A DNA stretch of 59,348 nucleotides, counting the filler, from Dugesia japonica (lineage: Eukaryota): NCBI GenBank assembly GCA_001938525.1. It is 5 parts of 5 records of this genome, joined end to end, with 100 filler letters (N's around TTAATTAATTAA, not from the genome) between each part and the next. Parts side by side here need not be neighbours in the genome. Positions count along the whole stretch, not along the records: positions 18,395 to 35,542 come from MQRL01593615.1; 4 more parts are not named here. One strand, given 5' to 3'. A program made the translations under genes and the position numbers. Each line of letters starts with the position of its first letter. The stretch's first letter is position 1. Shown in pieces: positions 9,202 to 39,823 of the stretch. The notes below the pieces were generated by a model. The model was not told where the DNA came from. It searched no databases and saw only the letters and a list, made by a program, of their open reading frames with translations.

Positions 9202-9529
9202 ATATTATTTTGTTGATTTTATTAAATAATTATGGATTTATTAATATTATACATGTATATTATATAAATAATTTTTAAATACATTCTAAAAAATTAGTTA
9301 AGGAATAATCGTAAATTAATAAGTATATTGTATTTTGTTCATTTATATTTGATAGTCAAACTCCTTTATTTTCTTTGTGCAACGTATGGGTGGGCATTAT
9401 CAGGCAAATTAATTACGTTATGCTGATCAGTGCCAAGTAAATTCCCATGCACTTTTTTTTTATCTGCTAGCAGTATTTTTCTGCGGTAATAGTTTCGCCC
9501 AGATTCAGAAAACTGTGATGTATGAGAGA

Positions 9530-10699: not shown

Positions 10700-11312
10700 G
10701 GTTCTTTTCCGTTAACTGGCCGCAACTTTTTTTTCTTGTTTTATGAATTGTTAACTCGATATTTTGGTTTTAATATTATTTTATATTTTATTTAAAAGAC
10801 TTTCATCAATTTCAAACACTAATTCAACACCCCCAGTCAATGTTGAGTCGCCTATTACACACCTCCCGCATTTAGTTGCTCCAATCCACTACCGCATTAT
10901 TACCCATCTCTAATTCGCGTTCGCAGAAATCCACATATAAAANNNNNNNNNNNNNNNNNNNNNNNNNNNNNNNNNNNNNNNNNNNNNNNNNNNNNNNNNN
11001 NNNNNNNNNNNNNNNNNNNNNNNNNNNNNNNNNNNNNNNACATGTGTATTTATCACACCTCCAACGAATTTTTGTCCCAAATTGTAGCTTCATCTGATGA
11101 TTATCTGCGCATGATATTCCTTCCTAAAAAACTTTTACCGCTTCCTCTTTGCTATTCACTTGACGAATTAGTTGTTTAAAATGCATAATAAGCAATGGAA
11201 AATTAAAAAAAAGTAAATTTAATTGATTAAAAATGCTTAAAAAATTAAAACACAAAGTTTGTAAAGTGGTTGGATGCCAAAAGAATTTGTGGCCCGATAA
11301 TGGAAAAGAACC
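10700..11312 (-). mobile_element. Internally deleted Merlin (IS1016/IS1595-like) DNA transposon
   Basis: TIRs GGTTCTTTTCCGTTAACTGGCCGCAA vs reverse complement GGTTCTTTTCCATTATCGGGCCACAA; 8-bp TSD AATTTTCG; transposase remnants WRC, FCERELEM..VVDWSN*MREVC, GG..VFEIDESLL. Confidence 0.9.
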
Positions 11313-11890: not shown

Positions 11891-11940
11891 GTAAAAATGA
11901 AATTTGAGATAAAAACATTTGATTAAAATTAATAATTTAG

Positions 11941-12168
11941 GTGATATAGACATCACTATTTTAGATGAAAAGAATTTCAGAGTTGACTTTAATACCAAAG
12001 AACTTTCAAATAATCAAATTGAAATTAGTTTTATACCAAAATTTTCAGGAGTATTTTACAAAGTAGAAATATTCTATGCTGAAATTTCAATTCCACAAAG
12101 TCCACTAATTTTCCATATTTTACCTAAAATTGATGTATCCCGTGTGTCTATAGAAAATATGAAATTAA
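11941..12168 (+). CDS. Filamin-type Ig-repeat protein, internal exon
   Basis: Follows a 50-bp GT-AG intron in phase: GDIDITILDE..IEISFIPKFSGVFYKVEIFYAEISIPQSPL..DVSRVSI. Confidence 0.85.
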
Positions 12169-12224
12169 GTAATACTAGTTTTTTATGGATATAGAAAAAT
12201 ATATTTCTCAAAAACTTTTGATCT

Positions 12225-12790
12225 GATTTCAATAAATTAAAAGCTTCGATCAAAATTTTGATTTTTATTTTTCTTAATTGTTGTTAGTATTTCGAATTTT
12301 CGACATTTGTCTTCTTCAGGAATTAACTTTCGGATTTATTCAATATTTATTATTGTAATACGAAAATTTTTGGAATTTATTTTTTTTATTGAATTTTAAT
12401 TAGTTAATTTATTTAAATATTATAAATTCCATCGAGTTTAATTAGTAACTACATTAATAATTCATATTTCTTCCTGTGAAGTGTGGAAAAGTAGTCTGTT
12501 CTTAGTAATTTTCATGTTATATGATGAAATGTTANNNNNNNNNNNNNNNNNNNNNNNNNNNNNNNNNNNNNNNNNNNNNNNNNNNNNNNNNNNNNNNNNN
12601 NNNNNNNNNNNNNNNNNNNNNNNNNNNNNGTGACAATTTTTATTGTATATATTTCTACCATCACAAATGCATTTTGGATCACAAAGGTTTTGTCGTGGTT
12701 TCTGTAATTGGATACCCAAAGGTGTTTTGAATATTATTCTTGGATTGCGCCTGAGTTCAAATTTCGTTTACTATTATTAGTTTGGTTAAC
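12225..12790 (-). mobile_element. Penelope-like element 3' fragment (GIY-YIG region plus pseudo-LTR)
   Basis: Reverse complement matches 22380-22745 (PKCICDGRNI, HRKKxE), followed by the pLTR repeat. Confidence 0.85.
12289..12324 (-). ncRNA. Minimal type I hammerhead ribozyme motif in a Penelope pLTR
   Basis: Minus strand reads AAUUC-CUGAAGA-A-GAC(aaau)GUC-GAA-AAUU-C-GAAAU: intact core boxes, 3-bp stem II, palindromic AAUU at stem III. Confidence 0.6.
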
Positions 12791-13620
12791 AATATCATAT
12801 AATTCCATAAATATTTGTTTAATTACAAACTATTTTGGTTTTTTGTTGAAAGTTAAAAAGATGAAAATTCAAAATATTCAAACACATTAACTTCGATTAA
12901 TTTTTTGATGAAGGTATTTTTTAAAATAACTAATGCCCGTGAAACTTAAAAATATTTATAAGTTAATTTTAAATAAAATTCACCTAAATATATTCATTTA
13001 AAATTTTCAAAATTTAAATATATAGTCTTACATAAATTTTCTGTTCATAAATTTTTAAAATTTAAAATAATTTTTTAGAAATTTTGTTTTAAATTTCAAA
13101 TTTTGACCTTGCTACATTTGATTAAATTTTTACCCAAAACATACTGAAGATTTGAATAATACACTCTATAAAATTTAAAAATTTTACAGGGCACAAACTA
13201 ATTCTTCTAACTACTTTTTGCATTATTTGGTTACGTTTCTCATTAATAAAATGTAATTTAATTACTGTGTTGGTTTTTGGTTTGATTTTATTAAATTTTA
13301 TATTTAAAGATATATATTTAGATATAACTTTATTTTGATGGCCATTTATTTATTTATTTATTTTATAAATTTGAGAGAAATAAATTTCTTTTCTTCATAT
13401 GAAGAAAGTATCTCAACTATAATTATTTCACCATTAATTGTACCAATTTTCTGCCTGATGATGGTAGTATTACTACTCCGGGGTAATATATGTCCACTGT
13501 GAAACAGTTTCACATATAATTGATTTATTATAACTGATTCAATTCTTAAATCCAGTAAATTAAATAATTTAAATAAGTAATCATTTTTCTAATTTTGTAC
13601 TATAAATTGAAATAGTTTAT

Positions 13621-15682: not shown

Positions 15683-16141
15683 GAAATTACAATGAATTAA
15701 ATTAACTAAAAAAATATAAAAACTTAAATTATTTTTATAGTTTATTTAATATATAAAAACGAAAATATCAAATAATAATGAGATTTTAAATTATTTTCGA
15801 TTTTAAATTTCTCTATTGGTTAACCAGTGTTAGTTCTATTTAATTATACATTAAAATGAAAGAAAACGACATCTATGTCTTAAAGGTTTCTTAATTTCGT
15901 TTTCACAATTTTTCATATTTTACAATGGTTCTAAATTAAAATTGAAACAATTATAATTAAATTAAATTAAATTTTAAAAAAGTATTTTCAAGAAAAACAT
16001 TAAAATTTCATTTAATTTTAAATTAAAGTAAATAAATATGTGATTGATGTAACTGAATTTATTTAAATATATAAATAAAATAACATATTGATTTACATAA
16101 AATCAATGAATTATTTTTAATAAGAATAATTTTCATTTAAG

Positions 16142-16315
16142 ACGTATACAAAGAATCGTTTGAAAAATTTGAAATCGATTGTCTAAATATTATTGACAAA
16201 GCAAACATAAAATTGGATATAAAAATAACAGATTCTAAACAAAAATCCATCGAATATTCATTAAAAGAAATAAATTTCGGTATTTATCAATGTAGCTATT
16301 CGCCAATAATAGAAG
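16142..16315 (+). CDS. Filamin-type Ig-repeat protein, next exon
   Basis: AAG| (N)VYKESFEKFEIDC..LDIKITDSKQKSI..GIYQCSYSPIIE |GTAAG; phase matches the exon ending at 12168. Confidence 0.8.
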
Positions 16316-16553
16316 GTAAGATTAATATTTATTTTTCTTATCAATATTTTGTCTTAAAATATTTCCTTTATCTTTAATCAATATTTGCAAATAAAAATTA
16401 TTAAATTAATTATTAATTGATTATTATTAATATTATTAAATTTATTTCAATATTTTTTAATTAAATTTTTTATCAATTGCTTCAATAATTTAATGATTAA
16501 ATTTAATATAAAACGCACAAATTTCATTTTACATGTTACTTAATTGAGTTTAA

Positions 16554-16929
16554 CCCTTTTAATACGAGTTTTTTTCTTTTCATAATATTTAGATAATATA
16601 TGTTACATATGATTTGTTATCAACTAAGCAACATAGAGAAAATAAAATTAACCAATTACCGAAATAATTTATCAATAACAACCGTTAAAAAAACCAATTC
16701 CTGACAAAGACGTAGTCGAAAATTAGAATTATTATCACAAGCAAAGAAATATTTTAATCAAAGCTTTTATTTTAATGAAAACTATTAAANNNNNNNNNNN
16801 NNNNNNNNNNNNNNNNNNNNNNNNNNNNNNNNNNNNNNNNNNNNNNNNNNNNNNNNNNNNNNNNNNNNNNNNNNNNNNNNNNNNNNNNNNNNNNNNNNNN
16901 NNNNNNNNNNNNNNNNNNNNNNGAAAGGG
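16554..16929. mobile_element. Possible piggyBac-type MITE containing a Penelope pLTR piece
   Basis: TTAA-CCCTTT ... AAAGGG-TTAA termini; interior partly gapped. Confidence 0.4.
16696..16730 (+). ncRNA. Minimal hammerhead motif, copy with a G8A core mutation
   Basis: AAUUC-CUGACAA-A-GAC(gua)GUC-GAA-AAUU-A-GAAUU; perfect 5-bp stem I. Confidence 0.5.
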
Positions 16930-17404: not shown

Positions 17405-17705
17405 AGGTTCATGATTCGCCAAACACACATCGTACAATCTACGCTACAAAAATTAAACAATTTAAACTATGAAAGTCTGTCTCATTCTGCATACTCACTA
17501 GATCTCTTCTCACTAATTAACATTATTTTAAAACATTTAAATAAGTTGTTTGACGGTAAAACCTTCAACAACAAAGATACAGTTATTAATACCTTCAAAG
17601 ATTTCGTTGCACCTAGAACTACCGATGTCTATTCTATGTTGGATAAATAAACTTTCAAATATGAGTGAAATGTGTACATAGTAATAGATTTTATTTTCAT
17701 AAATA
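17405..17705 (+). pseudogene. mariner transposase C-terminal fragment
   Basis: LSHSAYSLDL..KHL...DGKTFNN (degenerate HPPYSPDL). Confidence 0.75.
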
Positions 17706-17711
17706 AATTTT

Positions 17712-18090
17712 TTCACAATTTCAATTATTGCGCGAATAATTGTTGAACGTAACCATTGATCATTTTTCAGAAATCATTAAAATAAAAGCTTCGAACAAAA
17801 TTTATTTTTTTTAGTTTTTGTTAATAATTTTATATTTCAACTTTGTCTTCTTCAGGAATTGACTTTTTGATTTATTCAATATTTATTTTTACAATAGAAA
17901 TTTTCTTTGAATTTATTTATTTTTACTAAATTTTAATTGGTCAATTTTTANNNNNNNNNNNNNNNNNNNNNNNNNNNNNNNNNNNNNNNNNNNNNNNNNN
18001 NNNNNNNNNNNNNNNNNNNNNNNNNNNNNNNNNNNNNNNNNGTCGTCTGTTCCTAGTGTTTTCCATGTTAAGTGATGTTGTTCTGGTGAA
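17712..18090 (-). mobile_element. Penelope-like 3' fragment with pLTR
   Basis: PEQHHLTWKTLGT (cf. 22675-22712), followed by a pLTR containing AATTC-CTGAAGA-AGAC..GTT-GAAA. Confidence 0.8.
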
Positions 18091-18120
18091 ATCTTTTGGA
18101 TCATCTTTTTTTGACCAAGT

Positions 18121-18232
18121 TGTTCAAATTAAAAACACGATATAATTGATTATTCAAATTAAAAACATGATATAATGGATTGTTCAAAATAAAAACATGA
18201 TGTATTGGATTGATCGAATAAAAAATATGATA
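18121..18232. repeat. ~30-bp tandem minisatellite, about 3.5 copies
   Basis: TGTTCAAATTAAAAACAYGATATAATKGAT units. Confidence 0.85.
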
Positions 18233-18294
18233 AAAATTTAAATTTAAAAATTACAAACACGATAGAAAATCTATAAATTTATTAAACAAAAAAT

Positions 18295-18394
18295 NNNNNN
18301 NNNNNNNNNNNNNNNNNNNNNNNNNNNNNNNNNNNNNNTTAATTAATTAANNNNNNNNNNNNNNNNNNNNNNNNNNNNNNNNNNNNNNNNNNNN
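18295..18394. other. Artificial contig spacer
   Basis: 44N + TTAATTAATTAA + 44N. Confidence 0.97.
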
Positions 18395-18689
18395 ATTTAG
18401 ATACAATTATATTTGAATAACCATTATTTAGAAACTTATTTTTTATCAACCTTAAGGAAGTCAATCTCATTTCTTTATTTAGTCTTTATTTAGTCTTTCA
18501 GCTTTTATTATTTCACCCTTGATTATTCTAATTTTCTGTCTAATGTTAGTATTAATACTCCAGGGTAATATATGTCTACTGTAAAATAGTTTCATATATA
18601 ACGGGCAAATTAATAATTTGCCAGGTTTCTTTTGGATTTAAGTGTCCAGAAAATGAATTTGAAAGTCAATTGACTTCTCTAAAGTGTAT

Positions 18690-19326
18690 GTGATATTATC
18701 AATAATTCTATTGGCTATTTCTAGAAATAATCAATTGTTTGACCTAGCGGTAGTAGGAAAAATTTGATTGTATGTTATTTATTTAAATCAAAGTTATTCA
18801 AGTCAAAATTAAAAAACTTATATTGGCATGGGGTCTCAGATGAAGAGCATGGACTGACTAAATCTGTATTTTGTAATATTAAAATGAAAATTATAAATGG
18901 TTTTGATTCTAATTGGAGCAAAAGATTAAGACCTAGAGATATTATTGTTGTTGATGATCTGTATCAGGAGGCAAACAAAAAATCGATTTCAATTATCTAT
19001 TCACAAAGATATCAAGACATCGTAATGTGACTGTGATATTTATAACTCAAAATCTATTTTATCAGGAGAGTAGTCATAGAACCCGTTATTTAAACGGACA
19101 ATATTTGGTTTTATTCAAAAATTCTATAGATCAAACTGTTGTTGATTTTCTAGCAAGACAAGCATATCCTAATAACTGACAATTTCTTATTAAATCATTT
19201 CAAGATGCCACAGAAATACCACATGAATATCTATTTCTGGACTTTACACAACAATGTCCAGAACGATTATAGGATGAGAACAGATATATTCAATCCAAAT
19301 GGTATCACAATATATAAACAAAATAG
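18690..19326 (+). pseudogene. Polinton DNA-packaging ATPase (FtsK/A32-like)
   Basis: Decayed Walker A IV*PSGS/GK at ~18734; Walker B IIVVDDL; LFTKISRHRNVTVIFITQNLF; YLVLFKN..D...FLARQAYP; DATEIPHEYLFLD; RMRTDIF. Confidence 0.92.
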
Positions 19327-19351
19327 GTAATTTTTCATAATTTTTCAAAGA

Positions 19352-19531
19352 ATGACAAAATTAAAGAAATTTGTAGTTGATCAAGTAACTGATGGTGCTG
19401 TTAAACATCAAAAAATATCTTTTGAGAAGGAAATGTATGGAAAAAAGAAGAAACAATCACATAAAAAACGTCATGTGAAAAGAAAGCAACAAGTAAATAA
19501 AAAGAATATGTTTAAAAAACTTGCAAAATGA
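19352..19531 (+). CDS. Small Lys-rich Polinton protein, possibly frameshift-truncated
   Basis: MTKLKKFVVDQ...KKKKQSHKKRHVKRKQQ, immediately downstream of the ATPase. Confidence 0.4.
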   Translation: MTKLKKFVVDQVTDGAVKHQKISFEKEMYGKKKKQSHKKRHVKRKQQVNKKNMFKKLAK

Positions 19532-19605
19532 AGTGGAAAGAAGCTGAGAATAATGAACAAAAAACGATTTTAAACAAATGAATGGTATGTATTATTTTAA
19601 TTAAG

Positions 19606-19931
19606 ATGAAATTACAAAGAAGCATTCCATTTTTACAGCTTTCAAAACCTTTTAGAATGAGAATTTTACAATCATTTCCACCAAATTCTTTAGATGATTT
19701 ACTTGAAATTATTATAAATATTGTTCGTGGTAATGTAGATTTAAGTGCAGCCAAAAATGAAAACATTGAAAAAACATAGAAAACTTTATTTACGCTTGTA
19801 AACACAAAAAATACAATGAAATACACTAAAGAAATACAATGATACGAGTAATAAAAAATCATGGAGGTGGCTTTCATGCAGAATTAATACCAATTGCATT
19901 AGCTGCATTAGGCTTAATTCATTTCAAATAA
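19606..19931 (+). pseudogene. Conserved small Polinton virion-module protein with a hydrophobic C-terminus
   Basis: PFLQL..RILQ..LLEIIINIVRGNVDLS..(frameshift)..KNHGGGFHAELIPIALAALGL; matches the E..xNIxxGNVxL / GGF pattern. Confidence 0.75.
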
Positions 19932-20457
19932 ACAATGGTTGACGTTATAGCGTTATTATTAATAATTACAATAGACTTAACTCAAATGAACAATGAGTGG
20001 ATGGCAATCATTACCTAATTTTGACATGAAATTTGCATTGAGTTGTTGTTATGGAGATAAAAATGAAGACAATATAGACATGTCAAAAAAACCTAGCAGG
20101 TTTTCGAGGCATAGAAAATTCATGAAAGCAGCTCAAAAACGAAACGAAAGACAAAAGTGGTTATCTGGTCATCTGGCGTACAACCTGAACAATCTAATAT
20201 TGAAACGATTTCCAACAAGAGCATATAAATCATAGTATTGATGATTTATGACCAATGAACCTAATTGGGATGATTCCGTATTTAAATTTGTTAGAGGTTA
20301 CAAGTATATGCTAATATGGATTCAATAAATTTTCAAAATTTGATCCTGTTAAATCAAAGGAACTTGAAAGAATAAACAATACTATGTAAATTGATATGAA
20401 TAAGAAAACCAAGTTGAATAGTATCAACACAAATAACCAATCAAAACAAAAATTTAG

Positions 20458-20780
20458 ATGAAATCAAATAATTTCTATATGCTTTTACCCAATAATAGTA
20501 TTCCACTAGTTCATCCAAATAATAATGCTAGTAATTACATTGTTCAGCTTCAAAATACATTTTACATGGTTAGTAGTTGGGTAGTTGCCATGATGAATTT
20601 CACTTTTGTATATTCAGCCATGCCAATTTACAGTCAATCTATGATTGCATATACTAATCATTTAAACTAATTGAGAAGGAACTAACAATTGTTGTTAACC
20701 ATAAAAAAAGAAAACGTTCTTTTAACTGTTACTAGTAAAGACAAATTATAAACTAATTTGGAAACAGTAATACAATTTGT
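20458..20780 (+). pseudogene. Polinton minor capsid (penton-like), 5' part
   Basis: FYMLLPNNS...HPNNNASNYIVQLQ......WVVAM matches FYxxLPSNS..PxNxxSxFxVxL..WEVxL. Confidence 0.85.
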
Positions 20781-20859
20781 TAGAATTATTATTTCTTAAG
20801 TGTTAAATTTTTTTTATGTTTCGCTGTTTTCTTTGATGTTATTATTTGCCTCTAACCAT

Positions 20860-21010
20860 TCTAGAAAAATATTTTTTGTATTGTTGAATTTAACATGAAT
20901 TCAACCTCTGGTAATAACTCAACAAGATTTCTATGCATTTTATTTTTCTGGCATATTTGAATTGCATCTTAGATAGTTCTGAATAAACAATCTTTCAAAA
21001 GGATGATACC
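20860..21010 (-). pseudogene. Possible retroviral-type integrase fragment
   Basis: YHP..ERL/LFRTI*D...LVELLPEVEFMLNSTIQK across a frameshift. Confidence 0.35.
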
Positions 21011-23520
21011 AACGTACAATTATCGTATCCCAGAAATTGATAGCAATATAGAAGAACTCAGAAATAACCTTTTAGAAACTTACAAATATAATAAGAATAT
21101 CAAATCTAAAGCAATAAAAACAAAATTATTAAAGAAATAAAGAATTTGAAATCAATCATCATCAGTCCAACAGACAAAACAAATAAATTGGTAGCTTTAC
21201 ATGAACAGACATACAAGGACTTCTACTCTAAACATCTGAATAATTATGAGACCATCATCCATAAAAGACTACCAATTACGGAAGAGAATAAATTTAATAA
21301 AGAANNNNNNNNNNNNNNNNNNNNNNNNNNNNNNNNNNNNNNNNNNNNNNNNNNNNNNNNNNNNNNNNNNNNNNNNNNNNNNNNNNNNNNNNNNNNNNNN
21401 NNNNNNNNNNNNNNNNNNNNNNNNNNNNNNNNNNNNNNNNNNNNNNNNNNNNNNNNNNNNNNNNNNNNNNNNNNNNNNNNNNNTTATTGAATTTTGTTCC
21501 AGCACATTTGAAAAATAGTTATGAGTTTGTTGAACGAATTAAAAGTTATGACTGTAAAAACGATGATCAATTTGGTTCATTGGATGTAACAAATCTTTAT
21601 GGATCAATTCCCGTTGAAGAACCGGAAAATGTCATCGATATTGTGAGTGATTTCTTTGAGAGATATAAAGAACATACAGATATTCCTGAAATCACNAAAA
21701 ATGATTTCAAATCTCTTATTAATTTGTGTCTATTCTCTGACAGCATTTTTATCGGTGAACAACGTTTTAAAAAAAAGTGGTCTGGCAATGGATAACAATT
21801 TTTCTCCTATTTTAGCGATACTTTTTATGATCTTCATTGAAAATAAAATTATTGTCAAAGATGAACAGAAGATACATCTTTGGTTCAGATATATANNNNN
21901 NNNNNNNNNNNNNNNNNNNNNNNNNNNNNNNNNNNNNNNNNNNNNNNNNNNNNNNNNNNNNNNNNNNNNNNNNNNNNNNNNNNNNNNNNNNNNNNNNNNN
22001 NNNNNNNNNNNNNNNNNNNNNATCCAAAAGAAACCTGGTGAATTATTACTTACCCAGTTGTATATGAAACCATTTCACAGTAGACATATATTACCTTGTA
22101 GTAATACTACCATCAGGCAGAAAATTGGAATAATCTAGGGTGAAAAAATGAGAGCTGAAAGACTATCTACAAACGAAGAAATAAGACTGACTTCCCTCAG
22201 GATGATAAAAAATAAATTTCGAAATAATGGTTATCCAAATAGAATTGTATATAAACATCTATACGCAAATACAGAATTTTATAAAATCAAACAAAAGACA
22301 AATGCATTAATTAAATTTCTTATTATTAATGAGAAATATAGCCAAATAATGCAAAATATAATTAAAAAGTCGAAACTAAAACACAATCCAAGAATTATAT
22401 TTAAAACACAAGNNNNNNNNNNNNNNNNNNNNNNNNNNNNNNNNNNNNNNNNNNNNNNNNNNNNNNNNNNNNNNNNNNNNNNTCCCAAATGCATTTGTGA
22501 TGGTAGAAATATATGCAATAAATAAAATATCACTTACAAAATAACATGCACCTTATATAAAGATACATATATAGGAGAATCATTCAGAACCATCCGCACA
22601 AGAATTAAAGAACATCTGAAACAGAAAGAAAGTGAAGTCTTCAAACACTTTCGAAACAAACATAATGTTTTACCAGAAAATTATCATGTTACATGGAAAA
22701 CATTAGGAACAGTCTACACTTCTACACTTCACAGAAAGAAACATGAGCAGATTTTAATTAAAGAAGATAAACCTCAGATTAATGTAGTGTTCAACAATTA
22801 CAATATTTGAAAAAATATTTTTGATTAAAAAAACAGTTTATATCAATATCTATAAATAATATGTTTAAAATAAATATATTTTTTATATTAAAAATATAAA
22901 AAAACGAAATAATATTAATAAAATATAATATTAATAATATTAATTAAATACATTAATTAGTTGTCCTAATACGAATTTGAAAGAAACTTTTAAAAAAAAA
23001 TTTTAGTTCAAAAAAAATTAATTTTATAATTTTGTGTAAAATTAGTTCATTTTTGAATGAATTTTAAAAAAAGAATTTTTTAAAAAATAACATTTATTTA
23101 TAAAAAAACACAAATTAAAATTTTTAAAAATTTTCAAAAAATACGAAAATTTAAAATTAAAAATTCTAAGTATAATAAATCTAAAATATCTAAAAGGCTT
23201 TTCTGTATAATTTAAAAAAATTTTTTGAAATTTTTTGAGTTGATTTAAAAATAAAAATTAAAATCATTAAAATTNNNNNNNNNNNNNNNNNNNNNNNNNN
23301 NNNNNNNNNNNNNNNNNNNNNNNNNNNNNNNNNNNNNNNNNNNNNNNNNNNNNNNNNNNNNNNNNNNNNNNNNNNNNNNNNNNNNNNNNNNNNNNNNNNN
23401 NNNNNNNNNNNNNNNNNNNNNNNNNNNNNNNNNNNNNNNNNNNNNNNNTATTTTAATGAAATCTCAAATGCGATCAATGGTTAAGTCCAACAATTATTCT
23501 CAAAATAATTGTAATTATAA
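21000..23520 (+). mobile_element. Penelope-like retroelement: RT plus GIY-YIG pseudogene ~21000-22810, pLTR end at 23450-23520
   Basis: PTDKTNK; FGSLDVTNLYGSIP; GLAMDNNFSPILA; WFRYI; LYMKPFHS; NGYP; ITYKITC....TYIGESFRTIRTRIKEH; KPQIN. Confidence 0.93.
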
Positions 23521-23559
23521 ATTTCTATTTTGAAATAAAACTAAACGTGTTAAATTTAA

Positions 23560-23936
23560 TAAAATCCTAACAATGTCATTAGGATTAAAAGAATCGCAAT
23601 ATAATCGATTTAATTTGGTGATAAACAACTACAATACGAAAATATCAAGAAACCTAGAATATTAAAGAGTTATAATGAAATGTGCATCTATTGTAGTATT
23701 GTTGAACCTATTGTTGTTGGTGATGTGTATGTTTCTTAATTAAAATCAGTATGGATAGAACAAAATGAAAATAATAAAGTAGTTTAAATAATTGTTGATC
23801 ATTCAATGTATTTACATATTTATTCATCATATATAAACAATATAGAAATTAATATAATATATGAAAGCGAAAAACTAATCAACTTTGCTGAAGACTCAAA
23901 AACACATTTAACGTTACATTTTAGAAAAGTCAATAA
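23560..23936 (+). pseudogene. Polinton minor capsid (penton-like), 3' part
   Basis: MCIYCSIVEPIVVGDVYVS*LKSV...MYL....INNIEINI...LTLHFRK. Confidence 0.88.
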
Positions 23937-24372
23937 TGTATCCTGATATTGTATCGTTGTATAGTACTAGTCAAGCCGATGAAGAATTACCTTACTTTCT
24001 TGGAAAGCAGTATGGATCTGGTTGGTTGAGAACAATAGGTAGATTTGATTTGCCAATTCTTAAACGTATTGGTTCATTTAGTATGAAAACAGCTCAGGAT
24101 GTACTAATTAATAATGGAGAAATACTACCAATATTGAAACCATAATCATTAGCTGAAAATGTTATGTCATCATTGCCTAGCGGAGTAACCAGTATGATTC
24201 AAAATGTAGCAGGTATATAACCTCAAAGTATAACAACTAAAATACCATCTAAAATAACTAATATGCTAAAAAATAAACTCAAAACAAAACCAACTAATAA
24301 AAAACGTAAAAAATCTCGCGCATCACTTATAAACAAACGAATGAGAGGCCATGGAACAATATTTGAAAACTG
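23936..24372 (+). pseudogene. Polinton core-like protein with a QxGxG motif and basic tail
   Basis: LPYFLGKQYGSGWLRTIGRFDLPILKRIG...TAQDVL; C-terminus KKRKKSR..INKRMRGHGTIFEN; in-frame stops. Confidence 0.75.
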
Positions 24373-25587
24373 ATTTGCGGTAAAACTAAATTATGTAATT
24401 TTATCGACCATCGCCACAAGCTGTAATTGATAGTGGTACTTTTGAAGATGTCTTTCATATGAATTCAATTTCAGAATCAAAGAACAATTTAGAGTTTTTA
24501 ATAAATAGATTTGCAACAGAATATTTAGATGTGAATGATAATTTATTGTATATTAAAATGAAGGTAAGAGATAAGGATGGTAAAGATATGGCTGACGGTG
24601 ATGATACAGTTCCTAGTAACTATATGTTGTTACACTTTTAAGGATTTAATTCTTTCGTTTAATAATTTCAAAATTGAAGGGGGAAATGGATCTTATATTC
24701 ACAAAGCATTGATTAAAACTATTATAAATTATAATGGCGATAGTAAGAATATATGTTTTACAGCAACAGGATATGGATCAGAAGCAGATAGAAAAAAGTC
24801 TATTAAAANATCAAAACAATTATCTCTATGTAGTCTATTACAATTCAATTTCATGGATCAGCCAAAATACCTTATTTCCGGTGTCAATGTTCATATTCGA
24901 TTGAAATGAGCATCTTCTAAGATTTCTTTGGAATCTGCAGCCAATGAACTTTAATATGTATTAGTAGATGTAAAATTAATAGTTAGGCGTGTATGCGTTG
25001 AACCCTCAGTACTAGCTGCTTATCAACTAGTACTAAAAAGCAAAATGTTGTTTTTCCAATAAGAATCAAGGAAGTCATTGCATTTGCAATTTGTAAAGAT
25101 AGCTCATAATTTTATAAAAAAACAAATCTTTAGTGATCGTCGATTACCCAGCTTTATTCTGGTTACATTTCAAAGTGTAGAACAATATAATGGTAGTTAT
25201 AAAGACTTGAGTTCAATATTTCAAAATCTACATGCTGCTTCCGTTTCCTTGACTAAAAACACTGACTATTGAGAAATATATACTCAAGATTTTACAAACG
25301 ATAATTATGCCACAACATATATGAAATCCATAGTAAGAAATTTGGGATATTTGAATAAGAATATGAATTGTTGAATAACATTTCAAGATTTTAAGGAGAA
25401 TTATCCTTTCTTTACATTTTTTCTTGTTCTACATTTTGATATAAATCAGAGTCAATTACCTCCACAAGGAAATTTGAGATTGGATATCAAATTTGCCAGG
25501 GGTTTAACAAGATTGGCATATGTTATAATTTATGGAGTATTTGAAAAGGAAATTCAGATTAATACTAACAGTACAGTATAAGTGTAA
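24351..25587 (+). pseudogene. Polinton major capsid protein (double jelly-roll), copy A
   Basis: LEFLI...EYLDVNDNLLYIKMKV; SYIHKALI; QPKYLISGVNVHIRL; KLIVRRV..PSV; RLPSFILV; YNGSY; GNLRLDIKF; IIYGVFEKEIQI. Multiple stops and frameshifts. Confidence 0.92.
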
Positions 25588-25595
25588 ACAATACT

Positions 25596-25923
25596 ATGTA
25601 TTCTTGACACAACTGCAATAAAGTAATACTTATTGCTTAATTTTTTGTATAATTTATTAATTTTATTCAGATAGAACGGAGTACATCAACGTTACTTGAA
25701 TCAACATATTTCAGTAAACAATGCCTTAATCGTCAATACTCATATAACATATTTATGTGAAGAACAATGGAAAGCTGTTTACAATAAACCTGCTGAAATG
25801 GTGGTATTTGATCCATTAGCAATTTATTATCCGTCAATGTTGGTGTCACATTTTTCAAAATTATCAAAACCAATGAAATTCGATATCAAGATTCGTTTAC
25901 TTGTAGGCAACAGTGTTTATTAA
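25596..25923 (+). pseudogene. Adenain-like cysteine protease, copy A
   Basis: LIVNTH....EEQWKAVY......FDPLA...Q..S.TC.QQCL, a degenerate IVNT..GEHW.A..FD..G..Q..CG..C; position after the MCP is as expected. Confidence 0.7.
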
Positions 25924-26129
25924 AATAAGCAACATTACAGATGAAATACTTATTTGCATGTATTTGTAGTATACGAAATATATGTTTTATTGAAAAAAAA
26001 TCTTTTTCATTTATTTTGACTAAGACGATAGAAAAACATTACTTTTGTATAATCCTATGTTATAATAAATTATTGTATGGAAATAAGAAAAATTATTATT
26101 CAAATCTATTTATAAAAACAAAAATAATA

Positions 26130-26410
26130 ATTACATCAATTCTGTCTAAGCAAATAAAGTAACACAACGGATGCCAATAGAGTTACAAAAACAAATTTAA
26201 TTCTCTTTTGGTTTTTTAATTCTTCCTTAATTTTGTCGATGAATATTGATCAGACAATGAGTTCAACATAGTCATGTTTATTCAATAGATCATTGTCAAT
26301 CTTGCTTAGGAATTAAATTTCATCAACGGATCCACTGGTAATTGCACTTGCCAATTTCTTAATTTTCTTTCCTCCTGATTCATGTTGATAGTAACTTCAA
26401 ACTGTAAAAA
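26130..26410 (-). pseudogene. Small Polinton-associated ORF, paralog 1
   Basis: KLASAITSGSVDEI*...KHDYVELIV*SIF, homologous to 27030-27300. Confidence 0.45.
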
Positions 26411-26634
26411 TGACTTATTTTACAAAACTTACTGTTTATATACTTCTTGCGAAACATACATACATACTCGTTATTTGTTAATTTTTATTAGTCGTTACAT
26501 GTTTAAAAGGAAATGAATGGGTATTATTCATTTTAATATGATTGGATGAAATTTGTTTTAAATGATTTGATTTGTTATATAAAATCATAAATATTCAAGA
26601 ACATGACGCGAGCATGCATTTTGCATGACTACCT

Positions 26635-26935
26635 CATATTACATGGTTACTATGTAAATAATACCCGCACAAACCATATATTACACAGTTGCTATGTAAA
26701 TAATACAAGGTAACTGTGTAAAAAATATACTCATAAACCCTAAATATTTATAAAAATATTTACTTATTAGTTTTTTTTATAGACTTATAAAGTATTTATA
26801 CAGTAATTTTAAGTTACAGATATGAAAATGCTCCACACTCATAAACCCTATACAATCATAAACCTTATACACTCATAAACACTATACACTTCTAAACCTA
26901 TGTAAATAGTACAATCACAAACCCTATAAAGTTAT
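26635..26935. repeat. Tandem (TA)CACTCATAAACCCTA units and TTACA-N-GTTRCTATGTAAATAATAC repeats
   Basis: At least six CATAAACCC-type units and two copies of an imperfect palindrome, read directly. Confidence 0.75.
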
Positions 26936-27029
26936 AAAAGTTTTACTTATATGTTTTTTATATAAATAAAGCAAGAAAGAAACAAAGTTATTATTCAACT
27001 CTATTTATTAAACAATCCAAAAAAACAAT

Positions 27030-27300
27030 AATTACATTGATTTCGTTTGACCAAATGAAACATCACAACATATGTGAATAGAGTCACAGCAAAAAATTTA
27101 ATTCTTCTTTGTCTCTTCAGTTCTTCCTTAATTTGTTCATGAATATTGAACGGACAACAAGTTCAACATAATCATGTTTACTCATTGGGTCATTTTCAAG
27201 CTTCGTTAGGAATTGAACATCACCAACGGATACGATAGTAATTATATCTGACAATTGTTTTCATTTCAATTTCCACTTGATTTATATTGAGAATAATTTT
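27030..27300 (-). pseudogene. Small Polinton-associated ORF, paralog 2
   Basis: KQLSDIITIVSVGDVQFLTKLENDPMSKHDYVELVVRSIFMNKLRKN. Confidence 0.45.
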
Positions 27301-27829
27301 TAATTGTAAAAATATAATAATAATTACATCAATTCTGTCTAAGCAAATAAAGTAACACAACGGATGCCAATAGAGTTACAAAAACAAATTTATTTAATTT
27401 ATTTTACAAAAACTTCAATTGAAGGAGTAATTATCACCAGAAGGAGGATATCAAATTTATTAAGTGCACGACTTAAAGAAAGGAAGTAGAAATACTGAAT
27501 GGTGTGGAGAAATTGAACCAAAACGTATTCCACCAACCAAATTGCTCAATACTAAGCTACCACTATGAAAGCAAATTACCAGTAACATCTTTTAAAGTAA
27601 AATGGGACATGTCACAGGAAAGAATAAAAATGACAATTGAGCTCTAAACGATTAAATTGTCAGAAGTGCTCAAATTGAGTAAGGAAGATTTGAAGTAGCT
27701 AATCGCAAGAATAGTCGCAGAAAACGAACTGAGATACTAACAATGGTCGAAGCTTACCATCAATCAAACCAAGATGTACCTAAAGAAATCGGTTACATGA
27801 TAAAATTACACAGGAAACAAGTTTCATCT

Positions 27830-27912
27830 CTGTGTAATTTTTTCCTGTAATTTTTACCCGTGTAATTTCGTCTTGTGTAATTTTTTCTCGTGTAATTTAT
27901 TCCCGTAAACTT
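27830..27912. repeat. ~15-bp tandem repeat with a GTGTAATTT core, likely a MITE subterminal array
   Basis: Five to six units, running into a gap. Confidence 0.75.
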
Positions 27913-28234
27913 NNNNNNNNNNNNNNNNNNNNNNNNNNNNNNNNNNNNNNNNNNNNNNNNNNNNNNNNNNNNNNNNNNNNNNNNNNNNNNNNNNNAATGC
28001 ATAGACAGAATTTTAGTCCTGACACACCAATATCATAAACCCACAAAAAATTATTTCCAAGATCTCCACACGTCACTGGAGACCAATTTCACTCTTACAC
28101 ACCCATATCCACACACCACCTCAACTTTACCTACTTTAAATTAACACACACAAAATTGAAAAATTAAAAATACACACGCACACACTTTAATTGAGATGTT
28201 TTAAAACTTCTTCATCACTATTTTCCACATCATT

Positions 28235-28790
28235 TAAACTCTATGAAAGACTATTGATTTAAAGTTCTTTCAAATTTCCGAATATTATTAAGCTTTATTG
28301 ACATGCTTGATTCTTCAAACACTGATTCAGAAATAAATATTTCATATACATATAGTCTATTTCTACATTTCTTATCAACTTCATCTTTTTAGAGAATAGC
28401 TAAAATGATCTATATAAAGCATTTATTGAAATCGCTTTTTTTGCAAGATTGGCGGATGTCAGTATATAACTATTCACCGATAGTCTGCTTGTATTTTCTA
28501 CTATGGTGATTTTGAGGTTCATTTCCTAAATCCTGTCGAGTATCCAACTGGAACTGAGCTCACCCTTACTAGCAATTTTTATTGTTTAATTGCTTTATTA
28601 CATAATCGAAAAAACTATCATTTAGTGGAATAGCACGATTTGATATATACGACAAGATTTTATTTCTTCATCCCTTATAAACTCAACAATTGATCCAGAA
28701 TTTGATTTTCATATCTTTTTATTCTTCTTTTCTTAAGCAGTTGGATATTAAAAATATACGATTGCAATTCTTAACTGTTGTTGTAAATAT
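28235..28790 (-). pseudogene. Polinton protein-primed DNA polymerase B, N-terminal fragment
   Basis: SSWILDRI*EMNLKI...LSVNSYILTSANLAKK..DFNKCFI*IILAIL...RNRLYVY...LNNIRKFER matches the GSGW..GSSYIxLP..KK..DxKCFxWxILA..R...Y..IxKFE block. Confidence 0.7.
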
Positions 28791-29809
28791 AAAAGTTACA
28801 ATAAATGTATATAAATTGACAAAAATAGTCAACTGCTAGTTCGAACCAAAGCTACTTCCTGCAATAAGACCTGTAAAATATGACCCTTTATGTGTAAATG
28901 TGTTCTCAACAAGAAACATTGTAATACATGGACAAAAAATTAAAATTTTTATGGAAATATGGATAATATAATATCAGATTTAATCAATTTGAAGGAAAAA
29001 TATATAAAAAATACTCAACACTTAATATATAATCAACATTTTAGCAATTCATATACACACACATCAACATTTTGGAAAAATATAAATCAACATTTTCCTT
29101 ATCAATCTAGCCTTCATCTTTTTACAAAAATAATTTAAACTCACAAAACAATTTGTCATCTGTAATACTACTTCCTAACCTTTAAACTTTATCTTACAGA
29201 AAATAAATCAACAATCAGTCAAACCATCTCAAAACTAGTACAATAACCTTGTTCCATATGCCGCACCTTCACAACAACACCAAATTCATTCAAATCCCAC
29301 AACTACTTACAACACCAGACACTTTTTCACAAAAATGCCATATAACTCATTGCCATGAGACTCACAACTTTCTCAGCTCCTTACGCATTTTATGCCATAA
29401 GTCCTTTAAGCAATGTGTAAGTTGAATTTGTAAATAATTTTGTGACATCATTTATGTAATTATGCTACAAAATATTTAAAGAATTTTTAAAAAATTCAAA
29501 ATTTGGATTGGTCATTAATAATAATATCATTTGATGAAAGTCTTTCGCTAAACCTTGATCTTCATTTTGCAAAATTCAAAGAAAAAGTAAAGAGTTTACA
29601 TAAATCATTTTTGTTCAGTAGTAGATCAATTCAAATTAATGAACTAATGTTTTAATTAACAGATTTTTATAATTTTTTGTTCAAATTGATGAAAATTAAA
29701 TTTTTTAATTCAAAATAAAAGATTTTCATGATAGTTTTGTTTAAATTAAGTGAAATATATCAAATTACTCATCATTTGAGGTGTAATAATAAGCTTAACA
29801 AGGATAACA

Positions 29810-30722
29810 TGATTAACAATTCATAAAATATTTGCACAATGAATACATAAGTAAAATATCCCCCGATCAATGTTAATATTAATCGTTTACTGGCAATATT
29901 AATGTTAACATTTGTCACTCCATGGTAATTTTAAATTTTAGGCGCTCCTCCGGTAATGAAAACATTTTCTAAGGTGATGAAATTATTAATACTTTTATTA
30001 GCTGTTTTCCCGAGAAGAATAATTATTAATTTTTATGTTTAGGTAAAATTATTAATAATATCATTAAAAATCATTCTCATACGTTATTTGAATAACAGTT
30101 TTGTTTTTCTTCCATACATTACCTCCTTTGACATATCAAGTTGAGCAGTTGACTATTCACATCAGATCTCAAATCGTAAAGGCTCAAGACCATTAGTATC
30201 AAGCCAAGATCGTTCATAATCAAATTTATTGATTGGCTTGCAAATTTTTAGCTAGACTAAGCTCGCGTACAGTACGTGAATTTCCAGTAGCAGTGCTTCA
30301 GATTGTTCATATTCGGTCTTAAATGTACGCCACCATATTTATGAGATAAAAACAGCTAATCATTGTTGCCAATATTTGGCTAGACCCAGATACATAAAGT
30401 GGTCAAGACTTCAAACTCGGATGTTATTAATTCCATATTGTTTAAAAAACGTCATTACATAAAGTTATTACCATTAAAAAAGTCATAACAATAAATCATT
30501 ACCGTCTAATAAAAATCATTTAAAAAGTTAATATTTAAAAAATATTATTATTAATTAAAAAGTAAATCCTGAATTATTGTCAGAGCGACAAATGTTAACA
30601 TTAATATTACCGGGGAGCATTAGTGTTAACATAAATATTGCTAGAGAGCACTAATGTTGATATTACTCGGAGGACATTTTACTTTTTTATTCATTGTGTA
30701 AATATTTTATCAATTTTTAACC
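29810..30722. mobile_element. Foldback/MITE-like element with ~110-150 bp imperfect TIRs
   Basis: ATAAAATATTTGCACAATGAATA...GTTAACATTTGTCACTC is the reverse complement of GAGCGACAAATGTTAAC...TATTCATTGTGTAAATATTTTAT. Confidence 0.7.
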
Positions 30723-30884
30723 ATCCAGAGGAAAATTCCATTGCAATTCCTATGCGATTATAGAATGATTATGGAATCAGTAACGTAACAATTTATTACT
30801 GCTTTTCGATTTCATAATGATTATGTAATGCTTATGTAATCACGTTATGACATCATAAATATTACGTATTTCTTGCTTAATTCC

Positions 30885-31095
30885 TGGATGTGAATGGGAC
30901 AAGTAGCACTTAAAACTGTTTATAATGCTATAAGAAGCAGTCATTTAAGGAATCAATGAAAACCAACCAATGAATGTGTGGTCGGATGTGAAGGAAAATT
31001 TTATTGCTGCTTTAAAAGAAGTTGTTGATGGACCAAATAGTAGTGAAATACATAAACAAAAGAATAAAATAACATCGACAATAAACAAAAGATAA
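30885..31095 (+). pseudogene. C-terminal remnant of the core-like protein, module B
   Basis: GQVALKT...SFKESMK...TSTINKR (cf. ASLINKR in module A), directly before MCP-B. Confidence 0.45.
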
Positions 31096-31102
31096 AGTTT
31101 AG

Positions 31103-32500
31103 ATGCCAAATAAGATTGTATGCGAAAAAACTGAATTGCTGCTATTTGACTACAATATACCTAAGGTTGTTGAAGGCACAACATTTAAATAAATTTACCT
31201 AAGAAATTCTATAATCAGGTATGCTGGACAACAAATTGAATTCAGTTTTATTGGTTCAGATAATGATTACTTGGATTTTAATGATACCTTGTTTCTTATT
31301 AAAATAAAGACTGGAAATAAACCTTTCATTGCTTGACAATACCGACATGATTCCTTCCAATTATTCGCTTCACATTATACTCAAAGAAGCATTAATATCG
31401 TTAAATAATGTTAAGGTTGTTGATACAAACGATACATAAATGCAAAAGGTTGTTGTTAGGAGAGTTTGGAAAACTCATCGAATCATTAACATCAGAATTC
31501 AACTCCATAAATTTATTAAAATAAAACTATAACATCAATAATTTTTTAAATAAACAAATTTAAAAATTCATATTTAAAAACGGAAAATACTAAATATTTA
31601 ATTTTATATTTTAAAAATCCTTAAATTTTAGTAATTTATTTTATAAATTATTTTCTTGATACAATTTTAAATATACTTTTGATTTTAATAAATTCCGTTT
31701 TAAAAAATTGATTATCATAAAGACGATGATAAAAGTAAAGTTGGATTAAAAAGTCTGCGAAGCTTATACTATTTAGTGAACCGTATCTTGATTATTTTGA
31801 TCAACCAAAGTTTTTTGTCGTTGTTAATATGAAAATCAAGTTGACAAAAAATGTTGGTTTGGTAGTTTAAAAATAAACCAAAGATAATGATACAGTTGAA
31901 TAACTCTACAGTCATATATTATAGAATCAAAATCAGTAATGTGCCGTGTTTGTGTTGATCTATCGGTTGTATTTAGACATCGTGAATGATTAGAACATCA
32001 AAATGCAATCTAACTTTTCCAAATAACAGAAATCGTGTATTTTACATTTCCAAAACCTTACATGGAGAATACAAAGGTAATCTCTTTCCGATGAATGATT
32101 ACCGACATTTATTTTGGATTCTTTCGTGATTATGGCTCATTTTGTTCAACATTCTTGAATTTCAGTGTAAAGGCAAGAAACGTTGATTATCAAACACATA
32201 TACCACTGATTTTGATAATGAAAACACCGAGGTATATGTACAATCAATTATTCATAAATTAAGTTTGTTAAACGTAGACCAAACCAATGGCATTAGTATG
32301 AAGGAATTTAAAGATTCTAATATTTTGGTTTCCTTTTATTAGCTCCTTGCTTTTAAACTTATTAGTTCCAACTACCGAAAACCGAAAATCTTAAGTTAGG
32401 TGTGAGATTCCATAAAGCCTTGATGGAAAAGTGACAATATATGCATATGATGTATTTGCTTTAAAAATTCCAATCGTCACAAATAATATAATAATTGTAT
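31103..32500 (+). pseudogene. Polinton major capsid protein, divergent copy B (AT-rich insertion at ~31460-31710)
   Basis: MPNKIVCEKTELLLFD..QIEFSFIGSDNDYLDFNDTLFLIKIK; YFDQPKF; SVMCRVCVD.SV; LPTFIL; QLP..NLKL..VTIYAY. Confidence 0.85.
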
Positions 32501-32574
32501 GAAAAACGATTTTTATATTCATATATTGCAAAGGATGAAGTATGGATGTTTTGCGAAAGAATGTGTTTTTATTA

Positions 32575-32885
32575 GCAGTAATTTGCAGATTCAAACAATA
32601 TTGAAACGTGAGTTGGGCAGTAGCCGATTAAAAGGAGAATATTTATTGAAGCGCTTACCTGAAATTTTACAAAATGGATTCTTTGTAATCAATATTAAAA
32701 TTTGCCGAGAATATTTATTTGTTCAAGAATATTTAGAAGCTATTTTTGAAGTAAAGATTATATTTTATATTTTTTGTTACATTTTAAAAATTCTTAACAC
32801 TTGGATTACAAAAACAGAAATATTTGAGAGAAAAACTGGATGATATTCCAGATTCGCAATTCAAAAGTCTAAATAAAACTTAACT
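32575..32885 (+). pseudogene. Adenain-like protease remnant, module B
   Basis: NLQIQTILKRELGSSRLKGEYLLKRLP...FFVINI......EYLEAIF resembles NxxQI..FxGVYxxDxLP..VIN..EHWxAI; follows MCP-B. Confidence 0.5.
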
Positions 32886-32904
32886 AACAAAGCATAATTA
32901 ATTA

Positions 32905-33105
32905 ATGTTAATCTATTGGTAGTATTGTTGAACCTATAATTGTAGGTAATGCTAGTATTCCTAACTTGGATCCAATGTGGATAGAAAAGAATAAAAATGA
33001 TGAAGTAGTTCAAATAATAGTTAAGAATTTTATTTATTTGCCGATTACTTCATCATGATTAAAACAATAAAAAACTAAAAGTCGAGATGATAACGGAAAA
33101 TTAGC
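32905..33105 (+). pseudogene. Minor capsid 3' remnant, module C
   Basis: SIVEPIIVGNASIP...WIEKNKNDEVVQIIVKNFIYLPITSS...RDDNGKL; closely parallels 23690-23880. Confidence 0.8.
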
Positions 33106-34415
33106 TCATATTCGGAAAGCATTAACTAAAACCATTTATCAATAAAATGAAGATAGTAAGAATATTTGTCGTATAGCTTCGAGATAAGAAGATGATGCAA
33201 ATAGAAAATTATTTGTTAAACTAAGTAAACATTTGTATGTAGTTCCTTTCAACGTACTGACGAACCTTGGTTAATTTTACCGATGGCTCAACAGGATTGT
33301 TTGTTCGAAAAATAAATCGTAAGTCACCGGTGACCTACGTGGCGCACTGGTCAACAACTGCGTAGGTAACCCGTGACCTAAGTGTTAACAAAAGTTAACT
33401 TTGAAAAAAATGCTTCGCATTGATAAATGTACTGCCAAAATGCTGACTACTTTCAAAGCATGCTCTCTTAAATTCTTATATGCATCTTCTTTTAGGAATT
33501 TCTTATAAAAGTATGTAATATTTTCAGTAGCAAAAAATATATATTCCTAAGTTCATTGTTACATTGTAAGTCTATTAGTTCTAGTTGATATTTTGCTGGT
33601 ACAGAAATTACGACAAGAATATATCAAAATATAACAATGATCTTACTTTATTTTTTATTGCAATCTTTACTATCACAACAATCCTTATTAATTTTTATTA
33701 ATTCTTTTTGCTGCATAGTATATATCTTTTATTAAAAAATAGCCAAGAAATAACAATTTTAAAACCAAATATTAGACAATCATTGTTATTACAGTATATT
33801 TTCATTTATTTAGTATATTTTACTATAATAATAATTTCAGCTTGAAACACAGTAAGAAACAATATTATTACAAAAAATATTAAAAATTTTCATTTTTGCA
33901 ATATTACTTAAGAGCCACAGGTTGCCCACCCCTGGTGCAGAACCTTCGGTATTATATAGTTATCAAAATGTATTAAACTAAAAATATGCAATTTATCCAC
34001 TAAAAACAATGAAATTTGCTTTCTTTGCAATTATATAAGGAGCAAATCTTTAGTAATCAAGGATTTTCGAACTTTATTCTAGTTAACTGTCAAAGTGAAA
34101 ATCAACTTAATGGTAGTTATAAAATCATTAGTTTCACATTTAATCATTTCAATGTTACTTTCATAACTTTATTTGGTATATTTAGATAAGAATATAACAA
34201 GCGGAATTCCACCTGATGAACTTTAGAGTAAATCGCCGCTCTTTACATTTGTTCTTGCTACAGATTTTGATATAAATGAAAGTCAATTATCTCAGCTAGA
34301 AAATTTTTGATAAGATAAATAGTTTACAAAGTCTTAATCGATACCAGTATATGTAGTCATTTATTGATTATTTCAAAGTGAAATCCAATTAAATGCCAAT
34401 AGAACAGTTCTTTAG
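33105..34415 (+). pseudogene. Polinton major capsid remnant, copy C (5' deleted, split by a hAT insertion)
   Basis: HIRKALTKTI..EDSKNIC..ANRK; EPSVI..YAIYP; NGSYK; LFTFVLATDFDINESQL; FQSEIQLNANRTV. Aligns by eye with copy A. Confidence 0.8.
33265..33934. mobile_element. hAT (Charlie-like) non-autonomous insertion
   Basis: Right end GAGCCACAGGTTGCCCACCCCTG; left end degenerate; interrupts MCP-C. Confidence 0.6.
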
Positions 34416-34424
34416 TTTAAACCA

Positions 34425-34770
34425 TATTGATATCTTATGTGATTGAACTACATGAAGCAAGTCTTTGTTAAATATACATGATTTTACGTTATTAGTTCAA
34501 TTGAGATTAATAAAATTGGAAAACAATGGCTTAGATCAACTATTTATATATGTTAATGAACCAGAATAGTTAATACTCAAACATCAAATATTCATGGAGA
34601 TCAGTTAAAAGTGGTTTATAATTAACCTGTAAGTAGACTGGTAATCGACTGACTTGGATATTATTATACAACTATACTGGTGTCATATTATTCGAGATTA
34701 TCAAAACCGATCGTACACAACAAAGTTCAAAATAAAGATTCATCATTGTTTTACAATTTATATTTTTAAA
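34425..34770 (+). pseudogene. Adenain-like protease remnant, module C
   Basis: IVNTQTSNIHGDQLKVVYN*P...D*LGYYYTTILVSYYSRLSKP...QNKDSS; parallels 25725-25905. Confidence 0.7.
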
Positions 34771-39589: not shown

Positions 39590-39823
39590 CTTAGATAAAN
39601 AAATATTTTTTAAAAAATTTTTATGAAGGTTAAAAATTTCCAAAATTCAATTTTTTTCGACCGAAATTTTTGATTTTATTTTCTTAAGGAGTTGTGATTA
39701 AATAAATTGAATAAATCAATTACAACTCCTGAAGAAGATAAAATTGAAAATTTGGGGAAAAAATTAAATTTTGGAAAATTTTAACCTTCATAAAAAATTT
39801 TAAGAAAACATTTTTTTATCTAA
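39590..39823. repeat. ~230-bp palindrome made of inverted pLTR-like arms
   Basis: TTTATGAAGGTTAAAAATTTCCAAAATT...GGAGTTGT vs ACAACTCC...AATTTTGGAAAATTTTAACCTTCATAAA. Confidence 0.8.

Follow-up and report, generated by a model that had tools for sequence, protein, structure and literature searches.

A degraded Maverick/Polinton-type virion gene module in the genome of Dugesia japonica

We analyzed a 59,348-nucleotide stretch of Dugesia japonica DNA (assembly GCA_001938525.1; hereafter the window) in which positions 18743-25923 carry a row of broken genes resembling the virion genes of Mavericks, also called Polintons or adintoviruses. The window is draft sequence of 26.5% GC with 31 runs of N of at least five bases, and its parts are joined by four 100-nt fillers at 9530, 18295, 35543 and 44592 (44 N, a 12-nt stop-codon linker and 44 N), of which the one at 18295-18394 lies just upstream of the module. 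The genes run in the order packaging ATPase, basic protein, a protein with GNV/GGF motifs, integrase remnant, minor capsid protein (penton), a protein with a QxGxG motif, major capsid protein (MCP) and protease, all on the plus strand. Mapping the proteins of intact relatives onto the window with tblastn and phmmer confirmed both this order and this strand, as a first-pass annotation of the DNA had proposed. Every gene of the module is broken except a basic open reading frame (ORF) of 59 codons. Direct Pfam scans of the broken frames returned no families for the viral genes in six of six frames, and gene identities were therefore taken through intact relatives. These include the intact MCP P0001 and three loci (L001-L003) confirmed among 75 pattern matches in a scan of a prokaryotic genome collection. 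All three are short contigs in bacterial metagenome-assembled genomes of GTDB, and are presumably mis-binned contigs of animal-type Mavericks. The features of the region are as follows.

18743-19330, plus strand: packaging ATPase (A32/FtsK-like) pseudogene, with 53% identity to the L001 ATPase across residues 16-211 of the latter
19352-19531, plus strand: basic ORF of 59 codons, open, 36% lysine plus arginine, located where Mavericks carry pm
19606-19931, plus strand: PZ/GasderminX pseudogene with an adenovirus pX-like tail, recognized by intact relatives; one stop and one frameshift
20059-20386, plus strand: rve integrase remnant, N-terminal ~110-120 residues, matching residues 42-121 of 352 in the L001 integrase and 8-117 of 366 in that of L002
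20458-20750, plus strand: minor capsid protein (penton, PX), N-terminal piece, tblastn E 9e-8 to residues 7-102 of the L002 protein; two stops
20964-22810, plus strand: putative Penelope-like retroelement (reverse transcriptase (RT)-like region and C-terminal GIY-YIG, the latter a Pfam match) inside the minor capsid gene
22811-23540, no strand assigned: AT-rich tail (10% GC), a gap of 174 N and the end of a copy from a dispersed family of short repeats
23534-23945, plus strand: minor capsid protein, C-terminal piece, tblastn E 2e-14 to residues 251-344 of the L001 protein; two stops and one frameshift
23936-24373, plus strand: QxGxG protein at the PW/Cupiennin position, 52% identical over 54 amino acids (aa) to its positional counterpart in L001; two internal stops in the tail
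24370-25587, plus strand: double jelly-roll MCP pseudogene, 68% identical over 401 residues to P0001; five stops and four frameshifts
25590-25923 (start approximate), plus strand: adenain-type maturation protease pseudogene, of which 25678-25922 aligns to two intact proteases at 41-44%

Frameshift-aware alignment of these genes to their intact relatives gave scores of 81-1337 relative to 28-42 on reversed DNA in 11 of 11 alignments, and the same alignments located the breaks in each gene. The reference locus L001 (JANOGQ010000345.1, 12,666 nt) has a 1073-aa ORF on the opposite strand, followed by ATPase, GGF protein, integrase, minor capsid protein, QxGxG protein, MCP, protease and a TBP-like gene. 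The frames of its core genes are open, with Pfam support for Pox_A32, rve plus Chromo, Peptidase_C5 and TBP. The 1073-aa ORF, which we take to be a polymerase from motifs recognized by eye, matched only Endonuclease_7 in Pfam and had no sequence match in the PDB. L001 thus has the same core gene order as the window copy, with an MCP that is 34-47% identical to it. It differs from the window copy in having the polymerase-like ORF, a whole integrase, a 419-aa MCP and no basic ORF between ATPase and PZ. L001 also has a weak 33-nt inverted pair (50-80, 11232-11264), L002 (1-4976) has two penton-like genes in tandem, and the end of L003 (1-1534) looks bacterial by eye.

The MCP pseudogene covers some 405 codons and that of the protease some 112, in agreement with the ~410 and ~110 codons first estimated. 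A structural model of the intact P0001 (mean pLDDT 86.9, built from an alignment of 37 of the 41 proteins retrieved with the window MCP) matched the solved double jelly-roll MCPs of iridovirus, PBCV-1, Sputnik and mavirus, with 244 matches at E<=0.001, a best E of 5e-16 and a TM score of ~0.6. The jelly-roll fold that the first-pass annotation had asked to see checked is thus found in an intact relative, and the window holds a double jelly-roll MCP of the kind that defines a Polinton/Maverick. The top match of P0001 in a viral structure library was protein R9XLG5 of Cotesia sesamiae Mombasa bracovirus (25% identity), and a Polinton of this bracovirus is listed in PMC4028283 Table S1. Pfam gave one weak double jelly-roll-like match among 37 MCPs and NCBIfam nothing useful; an Omp85 match in the same Pfam scan was dismissed as spurious. 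As for the other Polinton/Maverick hallmarks, the packaging ATPase is of the A32/FtsK type as judged by its intact L001 relative, which scores 29.2 bits to Pox_A32 (Pfam cut-off 22.8); the window pseudogene has a degenerate Walker A motif, one stop and two frameshifts within the aligned part. The adenain-type cysteine protease is likewise represented in the window by a pseudogene, with a catalytic histidine motif that is not conserved and at least one frameshift. Its L001 counterpart scores 31.9 bits to Peptidase_C5 (cut-off 21.3).

One of the small genes matches a marker of Beta-class virion modules, for which GasderminX with a pX-like tail and Cupiennin are hallmarks according to the sections available of Starrett et al., 2021 (PMC8502044). 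Of 17 candidate relatives of the GGF gene 12 are intact, and in two of the 12 the tail scores above the Pfam cut-off for Adeno_PX (adenovirus protein X). The model of one intact relative, P0233, matched the GasderminX of Terrapene box turtle adintovirus at a TM score of 0.79 and 33% identity, and this match ranked first of 108 (E 1.4e-3, the next match having E 0.5). This model comparison identifies the GGF protein as PZ/GasderminX, the Beta-class marker. Against solved structures the PZ model gave no clear match (best Z 5.7), and a gasdermin-like fold was not demonstrated. The 59-codon basic ORF, without match in Pfam or NCBIfam, is by its position the likely counterpart of pm. A conserved gene between penton and hexon is present in the window, L001 and L002; its QxGxG look-alike clusters are mostly from Preplasmiviricota, unnamed and weak in score, and its position suggests pw/Cupiennin. 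Between PZ and the integrase remnant lies a hydrophobic 27-codon ORF (19935-20018) without match.

The gene order of the window copy has been published gene for gene. In the available parts of Barreat and Katzourakis, 2021 (PMC8097293), the vertebrate Maverick core is described as two modules, ppolb-atp-pm-pz and int-mcp-pw-Mcp-pro, which share a strand in Xenopus tropicalis, and 96% of vertebrate loci are degraded. The window copy shares with these elements the order atp-pm-pz then int-mcp-pw-Mcp-pro, the single strand and the degraded state; it differs from them in being without ppolb or terminal inverted repeats (TIRs) and in having an MCP that is ~30 aa shorter. Terrapene adintovirus, as far as its description in PMC8502044 is available, shares the GasderminX with pX-like tail, a small gene between penton and hexon and the order integrase-penton-hexon-adenain. 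However, its map (Fig. S2B of the same source) places ATPase and GasderminX after adenain, whereas in the window they precede the integrase. The identification as a Polinton/adintovirus virion module that the first-pass annotation had made is supported by fold, profile and gene order together, and the locus is very probably what remains of a Maverick/Polinton (adintovirus) whose genes follow the known order atp-pm-pz-int-penton-pw-MCP-protease.

Several results weigh against this assignment. When the six frames of the window were searched with the L001 ORF, no polymerase B was found, the best phmmer domain scoring 2.9 bits. Nor were TIRs found in the window, judged as inverted ends of (AGT)2/(AG)3 with a 6-bp target duplication; the sole flanking inverted pair is 26 nt long with E 0.07, which is chance level. 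The penton had no sequence match in the PDB, and the RT-like pieces of the insert matched neither a Pfam profile nor a PDB sequence. Finally, the interruption of the penton gene contains four N-gaps, and continuity across it rests on the draft assembly. Pfam was blank over 18690-31150 where scanned, with no families in six frames of 25930-31150. Because no polymerase was found in the window, we class the copy as a truncated relic rather than a whole Polinton. A weak protease match at 18588-18686 (E 0.1), inside a Penelope-like copy, was dropped as chance.

The history that we favor would begin with a Maverick/Polinton (adintovirus with a Beta-class virion module) that integrated in the germline of an animal with an AT-rich genome and decayed there. 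By the roles established or proposed for the family, the MCP of the working virus would have formed the faces of the icosahedron and the penton its vertices, the ATPase would have packaged the linear DNA, the protease would have matured the particle and the integrase would have inserted the genome; the PZ and basic proteins would probably have been core or membrane-active. The copy would have lost its polymerase arm, its ends and most of its integrase. A Penelope-like element would have inserted into the penton gene, and stops and frameshifts would have gathered. Such a copy should be unable to make a particle.

The integrase is where this history meets its main competitor. The segment 20059-20386, previously put down as 'unknown ORF(s)', is the N-terminal third of an rve integrase (tblastn E 2e-4 to L001 and 3e-5 to L002; phmmer 18 bits relative to at most 4.1 on three shuffles of the window). 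The L001 and L002 integrases are whole and are both rve plus Chromo by Pfam. In the window the integrase hallmark of Polintons/Mavericks is thus present only as this remnant, which ends ~70 nt 5' of where the penton begins, and nothing is inserted at the junction; some 230 residues are gone, among them the chromodomain and the greater part of the catalytic core. The junction would also fit an ancestor that was already non-autonomous, without working integrase or polymerase and moved by helper copies, and PMC4028283 Table S1 lists non-autonomous Polintons of Nematostella in which capsid genes are retained. We nevertheless consider such an ancestor unlikely, as this junction is seen in a single available copy, L001 and L002 have whole integrases, and a deletion after insertion explains the junction equally well.

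The minor capsid gene is assigned to the penton by homology to the L001/L002 gene at the penton position and by the likeness, judged by eye, of its N-terminal start to the PX alignment in the part seen of PMC4028283 (Fig. S2). Its two pieces lie 2783 nt apart, which is 38% of the 7236-nt span, with 550 N in the four gaps and a GIY-YIG element between them. Thus the module is neither 'complete' nor 'tightly packed' as first described, since the penton is split and the integrase shortened. The 2.8-kb interruption appears, from its sequence, to hold a Penelope-like element. Specifically, a GIY-YIG endonuclease (Pfam 23.9 bits, cut-off 22.6) lies downstream of RT-like motifs, and one of the two cysteines between GIY and YIG is present. 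What we take, by eye, to be RT motifs A, B and the start of C precede it, an N-gap cutting motif C. Penelope-like elements have the layout of RT followed by a C-terminal GIY-YIG, and a CCHH motif is described for them, in the accessible text of PMC8557442. An Rfam scan for hammerhead ribozymes gave no matches at gathering score. Further Penelope-like copies, 75-83% identical, lie on the minus strand at 12431-13537 and 18047-18637, the latter abutting the ATPase where the polymerase arm would be expected.

The same gaps raise the question of whether two different relics were joined by the assembly, one running from ATPase to the penton N-terminus and the other from the penton C-terminus to the protease. 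The 550 N would allow it, the window contains other relics, and near-identical duplications across 50-N gaps reveal a rough assembly. However, the penton pieces, which correspond to residues 7-102 and 239-382 of the L002 gene, are colinear, non-overlapping and on the same strand, and the halves together make up the exact published gene order. A joining of this kind therefore seems improbable to us, and both halves most likely belong to one decayed Maverick element.

The extent of decay was gauged on the MCP. Across 33 intact relatives, which form the compact clade described below, 69 alignment columns are invariant, and 13 of these (19%) are changed in the window copy, relative to a leave-one-out change rate in the intact clade members of 1.4% (median; maximum 4.1%, n=33). 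This indicates that about one fifth of the MCP codons changed after selection had ended. The 68% identity to P0001 would thus understate the closeness of the original virus, for which simple scaling gives ~84%, and the divergence noted at first is partly decay. Two of the four MCP frameshifts sit near runs of 5-7 equal bases, and some frameshifts may for this reason be sequencing errors; such errors do not account for the stops, the deletion or the insertion. That the element is largely intact and its breaks are sequencing or assembly errors is hardly credible, given five in-frame MCP stops, the changed invariant columns, the loss of the integrase core, the inserted retroelement and neighboring Penelope-like frames that are far more open than the module genes. 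We give just as little credence to a gene kept by the host, such as the sole unbroken 59-codon ORF, which is short enough that it could have stayed open by chance at such decay.

The intact relatives of the MCP are numerous. With the longest window frame as query (X at stops), 41 proteins reached E<=0.001 among 1103 candidates, mostly of 402-416 aa, up to 66% identical and without informative name, and a profile search of 1.84 billion representatives gave 9264 proteins at the same threshold. A midpoint-rooted FastTree was built from 158 full-length proteins of 189 rows together with L001 and a single-frame piece of the window copy, 31 proteins outside 380-460 aa having been dropped; its reference set contains no catalogued Polinton. 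In this tree 33 intact proteins of 402-412 aa, 50-90% identical to one another, form a clade within which the window MCP nests (SH-like support 0.996), and L001 falls in the sister group. The word 'compact' from the first-pass annotation is justified in a modest sense, the median length among 121 other full-length matches being 433 aa. Sequence comparison thus points to a real, distinct clade of compact MCPs, some members of which lie on contigs of 12-22 kb. Two of 30 MCP clusters looked up, a set that included 10 of the 33 clade members, carry an organism (skink and sea spider); these two are 31-33% identical to P0001 and both fall outside the clade. In comparison with vertebrate Mavericks, P0001 is only 31% identical to the 436-aa skink protein from this search. 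A further protein, P0041 (UniParc UPI00060534B3), is a 293-aa gene model fusing MCP pieces to a protease, and looks mis-predicted on another decayed copy of the compact clade.

The relic itself is real and ordinary, and its kind is already known. Four Schmidtea mediterranea Polintons of 11.6-15.9 kb (Polinton-1_SM, Polinton-2_SM, Polinton1_SM and Polinton2_SM; Repbase) appear in PMC4028283 Table S1 (2014), which marks two of the four with MCP, penton, ATPase and protease. Planarian Polintons with capsid genes are thus already in print. Sources available in part further describe planarian Polintons as piRNA targets under PIWI silencing (PMC8532177), an expansion of Mavericks in Dugesia (10.64898/2025.12.11.693146) and Orthopolintovirales insertions in flatworms (10.1101/2025.04.19.649669). 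The parts seen of PMC6431247, PMC11161782, PMC10748475 and PMC3671162 hold nothing on flatworm families. In the literature searched, which did not extend to subscription papers, Repbase Reports and preprint supplements, no paper was devoted to flatworm Maverick capsid lineages and none paired 'adintovirus' with 'planarian'. What novelty remains lies solely in the unnamed clade of compact MCPs and hinges on how it compares with the Schmidtea families of Repbase. It is possible, and in our judgment rather doubtful, that the relic and the 33 intact MCPs represent an undescribed, still active, compact Beta-class adintovirus lineage of freshwater flatworms distinct from those families. If so, a tractable regeneration model would gain its own integrating DNA virus group, and with flatworms as hosts of the clade the question of whether animal Mavericks form particles would become approachable in a laboratory animal. 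With degraded Mavericks common and planarian ones catalogued, the locus adds little by itself; its use lies in tying a fossil in a genome to a clade with many members, whose capsid genes are intact and unlabelled.

The region is dense in transposons and contains at least three relics of this kind, the module included. A second, older MCP relic at 31115-32440 is 39% identical to P0001 over 116 aligned residues of the N-terminal part, is broken by a repeat (31485-31564) that recurs at 45451, and is followed at 32500-32700 by a possible protease remnant seen by eye. A third at 32904-34724, with 66-75% DNA identity to the main relic, retains the penton C-terminus, MCP pieces and protease, and is without the PW gene and the MCP start; its MCP (33089-34412) is 55% identical to P0001 over 157 residues. 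At 28756-28935 lies a fragment like the TBP-related gene found 3' of the L001 protease (27.8 bits relative to 7.1 on shuffles). A duplicated segment around 17-nt tandem repeats (26835-26898) is seen at 26080-26411, 26975-27313 and 27301-27395; it contains a decayed minus-strand ORF that ends in a hydrophobic stretch and has no Pfam match, and it may be an accessory region of the element.

The rest of the window contains fragments of hAT, Tc1/mariner and ISXO2-like transposons. Inverted-repeat pairs of 78-81% identity, at 29809-29934 with 30601-30724 and at 39591-39823, may bound small non-autonomous elements, and dispersed short repeats that are partly palindromic and resemble miniature inverted-repeat transposable elements (MITEs) occur at 3498-3617, 12229-12410, 16688-16778, 17689-17947, 23449-23540 and 48762-48915. 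Tandem duplications of 95-99% identity across 50-N gaps at 853-1636, 35643-37554 and 38228-38841 are probably unmerged contig ends or haplotypes. Probable host exons include a 313-codon minus-strand ORF at 8266-9204 with a weak KH-like lead (<0.9) and no scoring match among 81 candidates in a search confined to longer proteins, a TRAF-type zinc finger below cut-off at 55578-55904, and filamin-repeat exons at 11913-12191 and 16141-16374.

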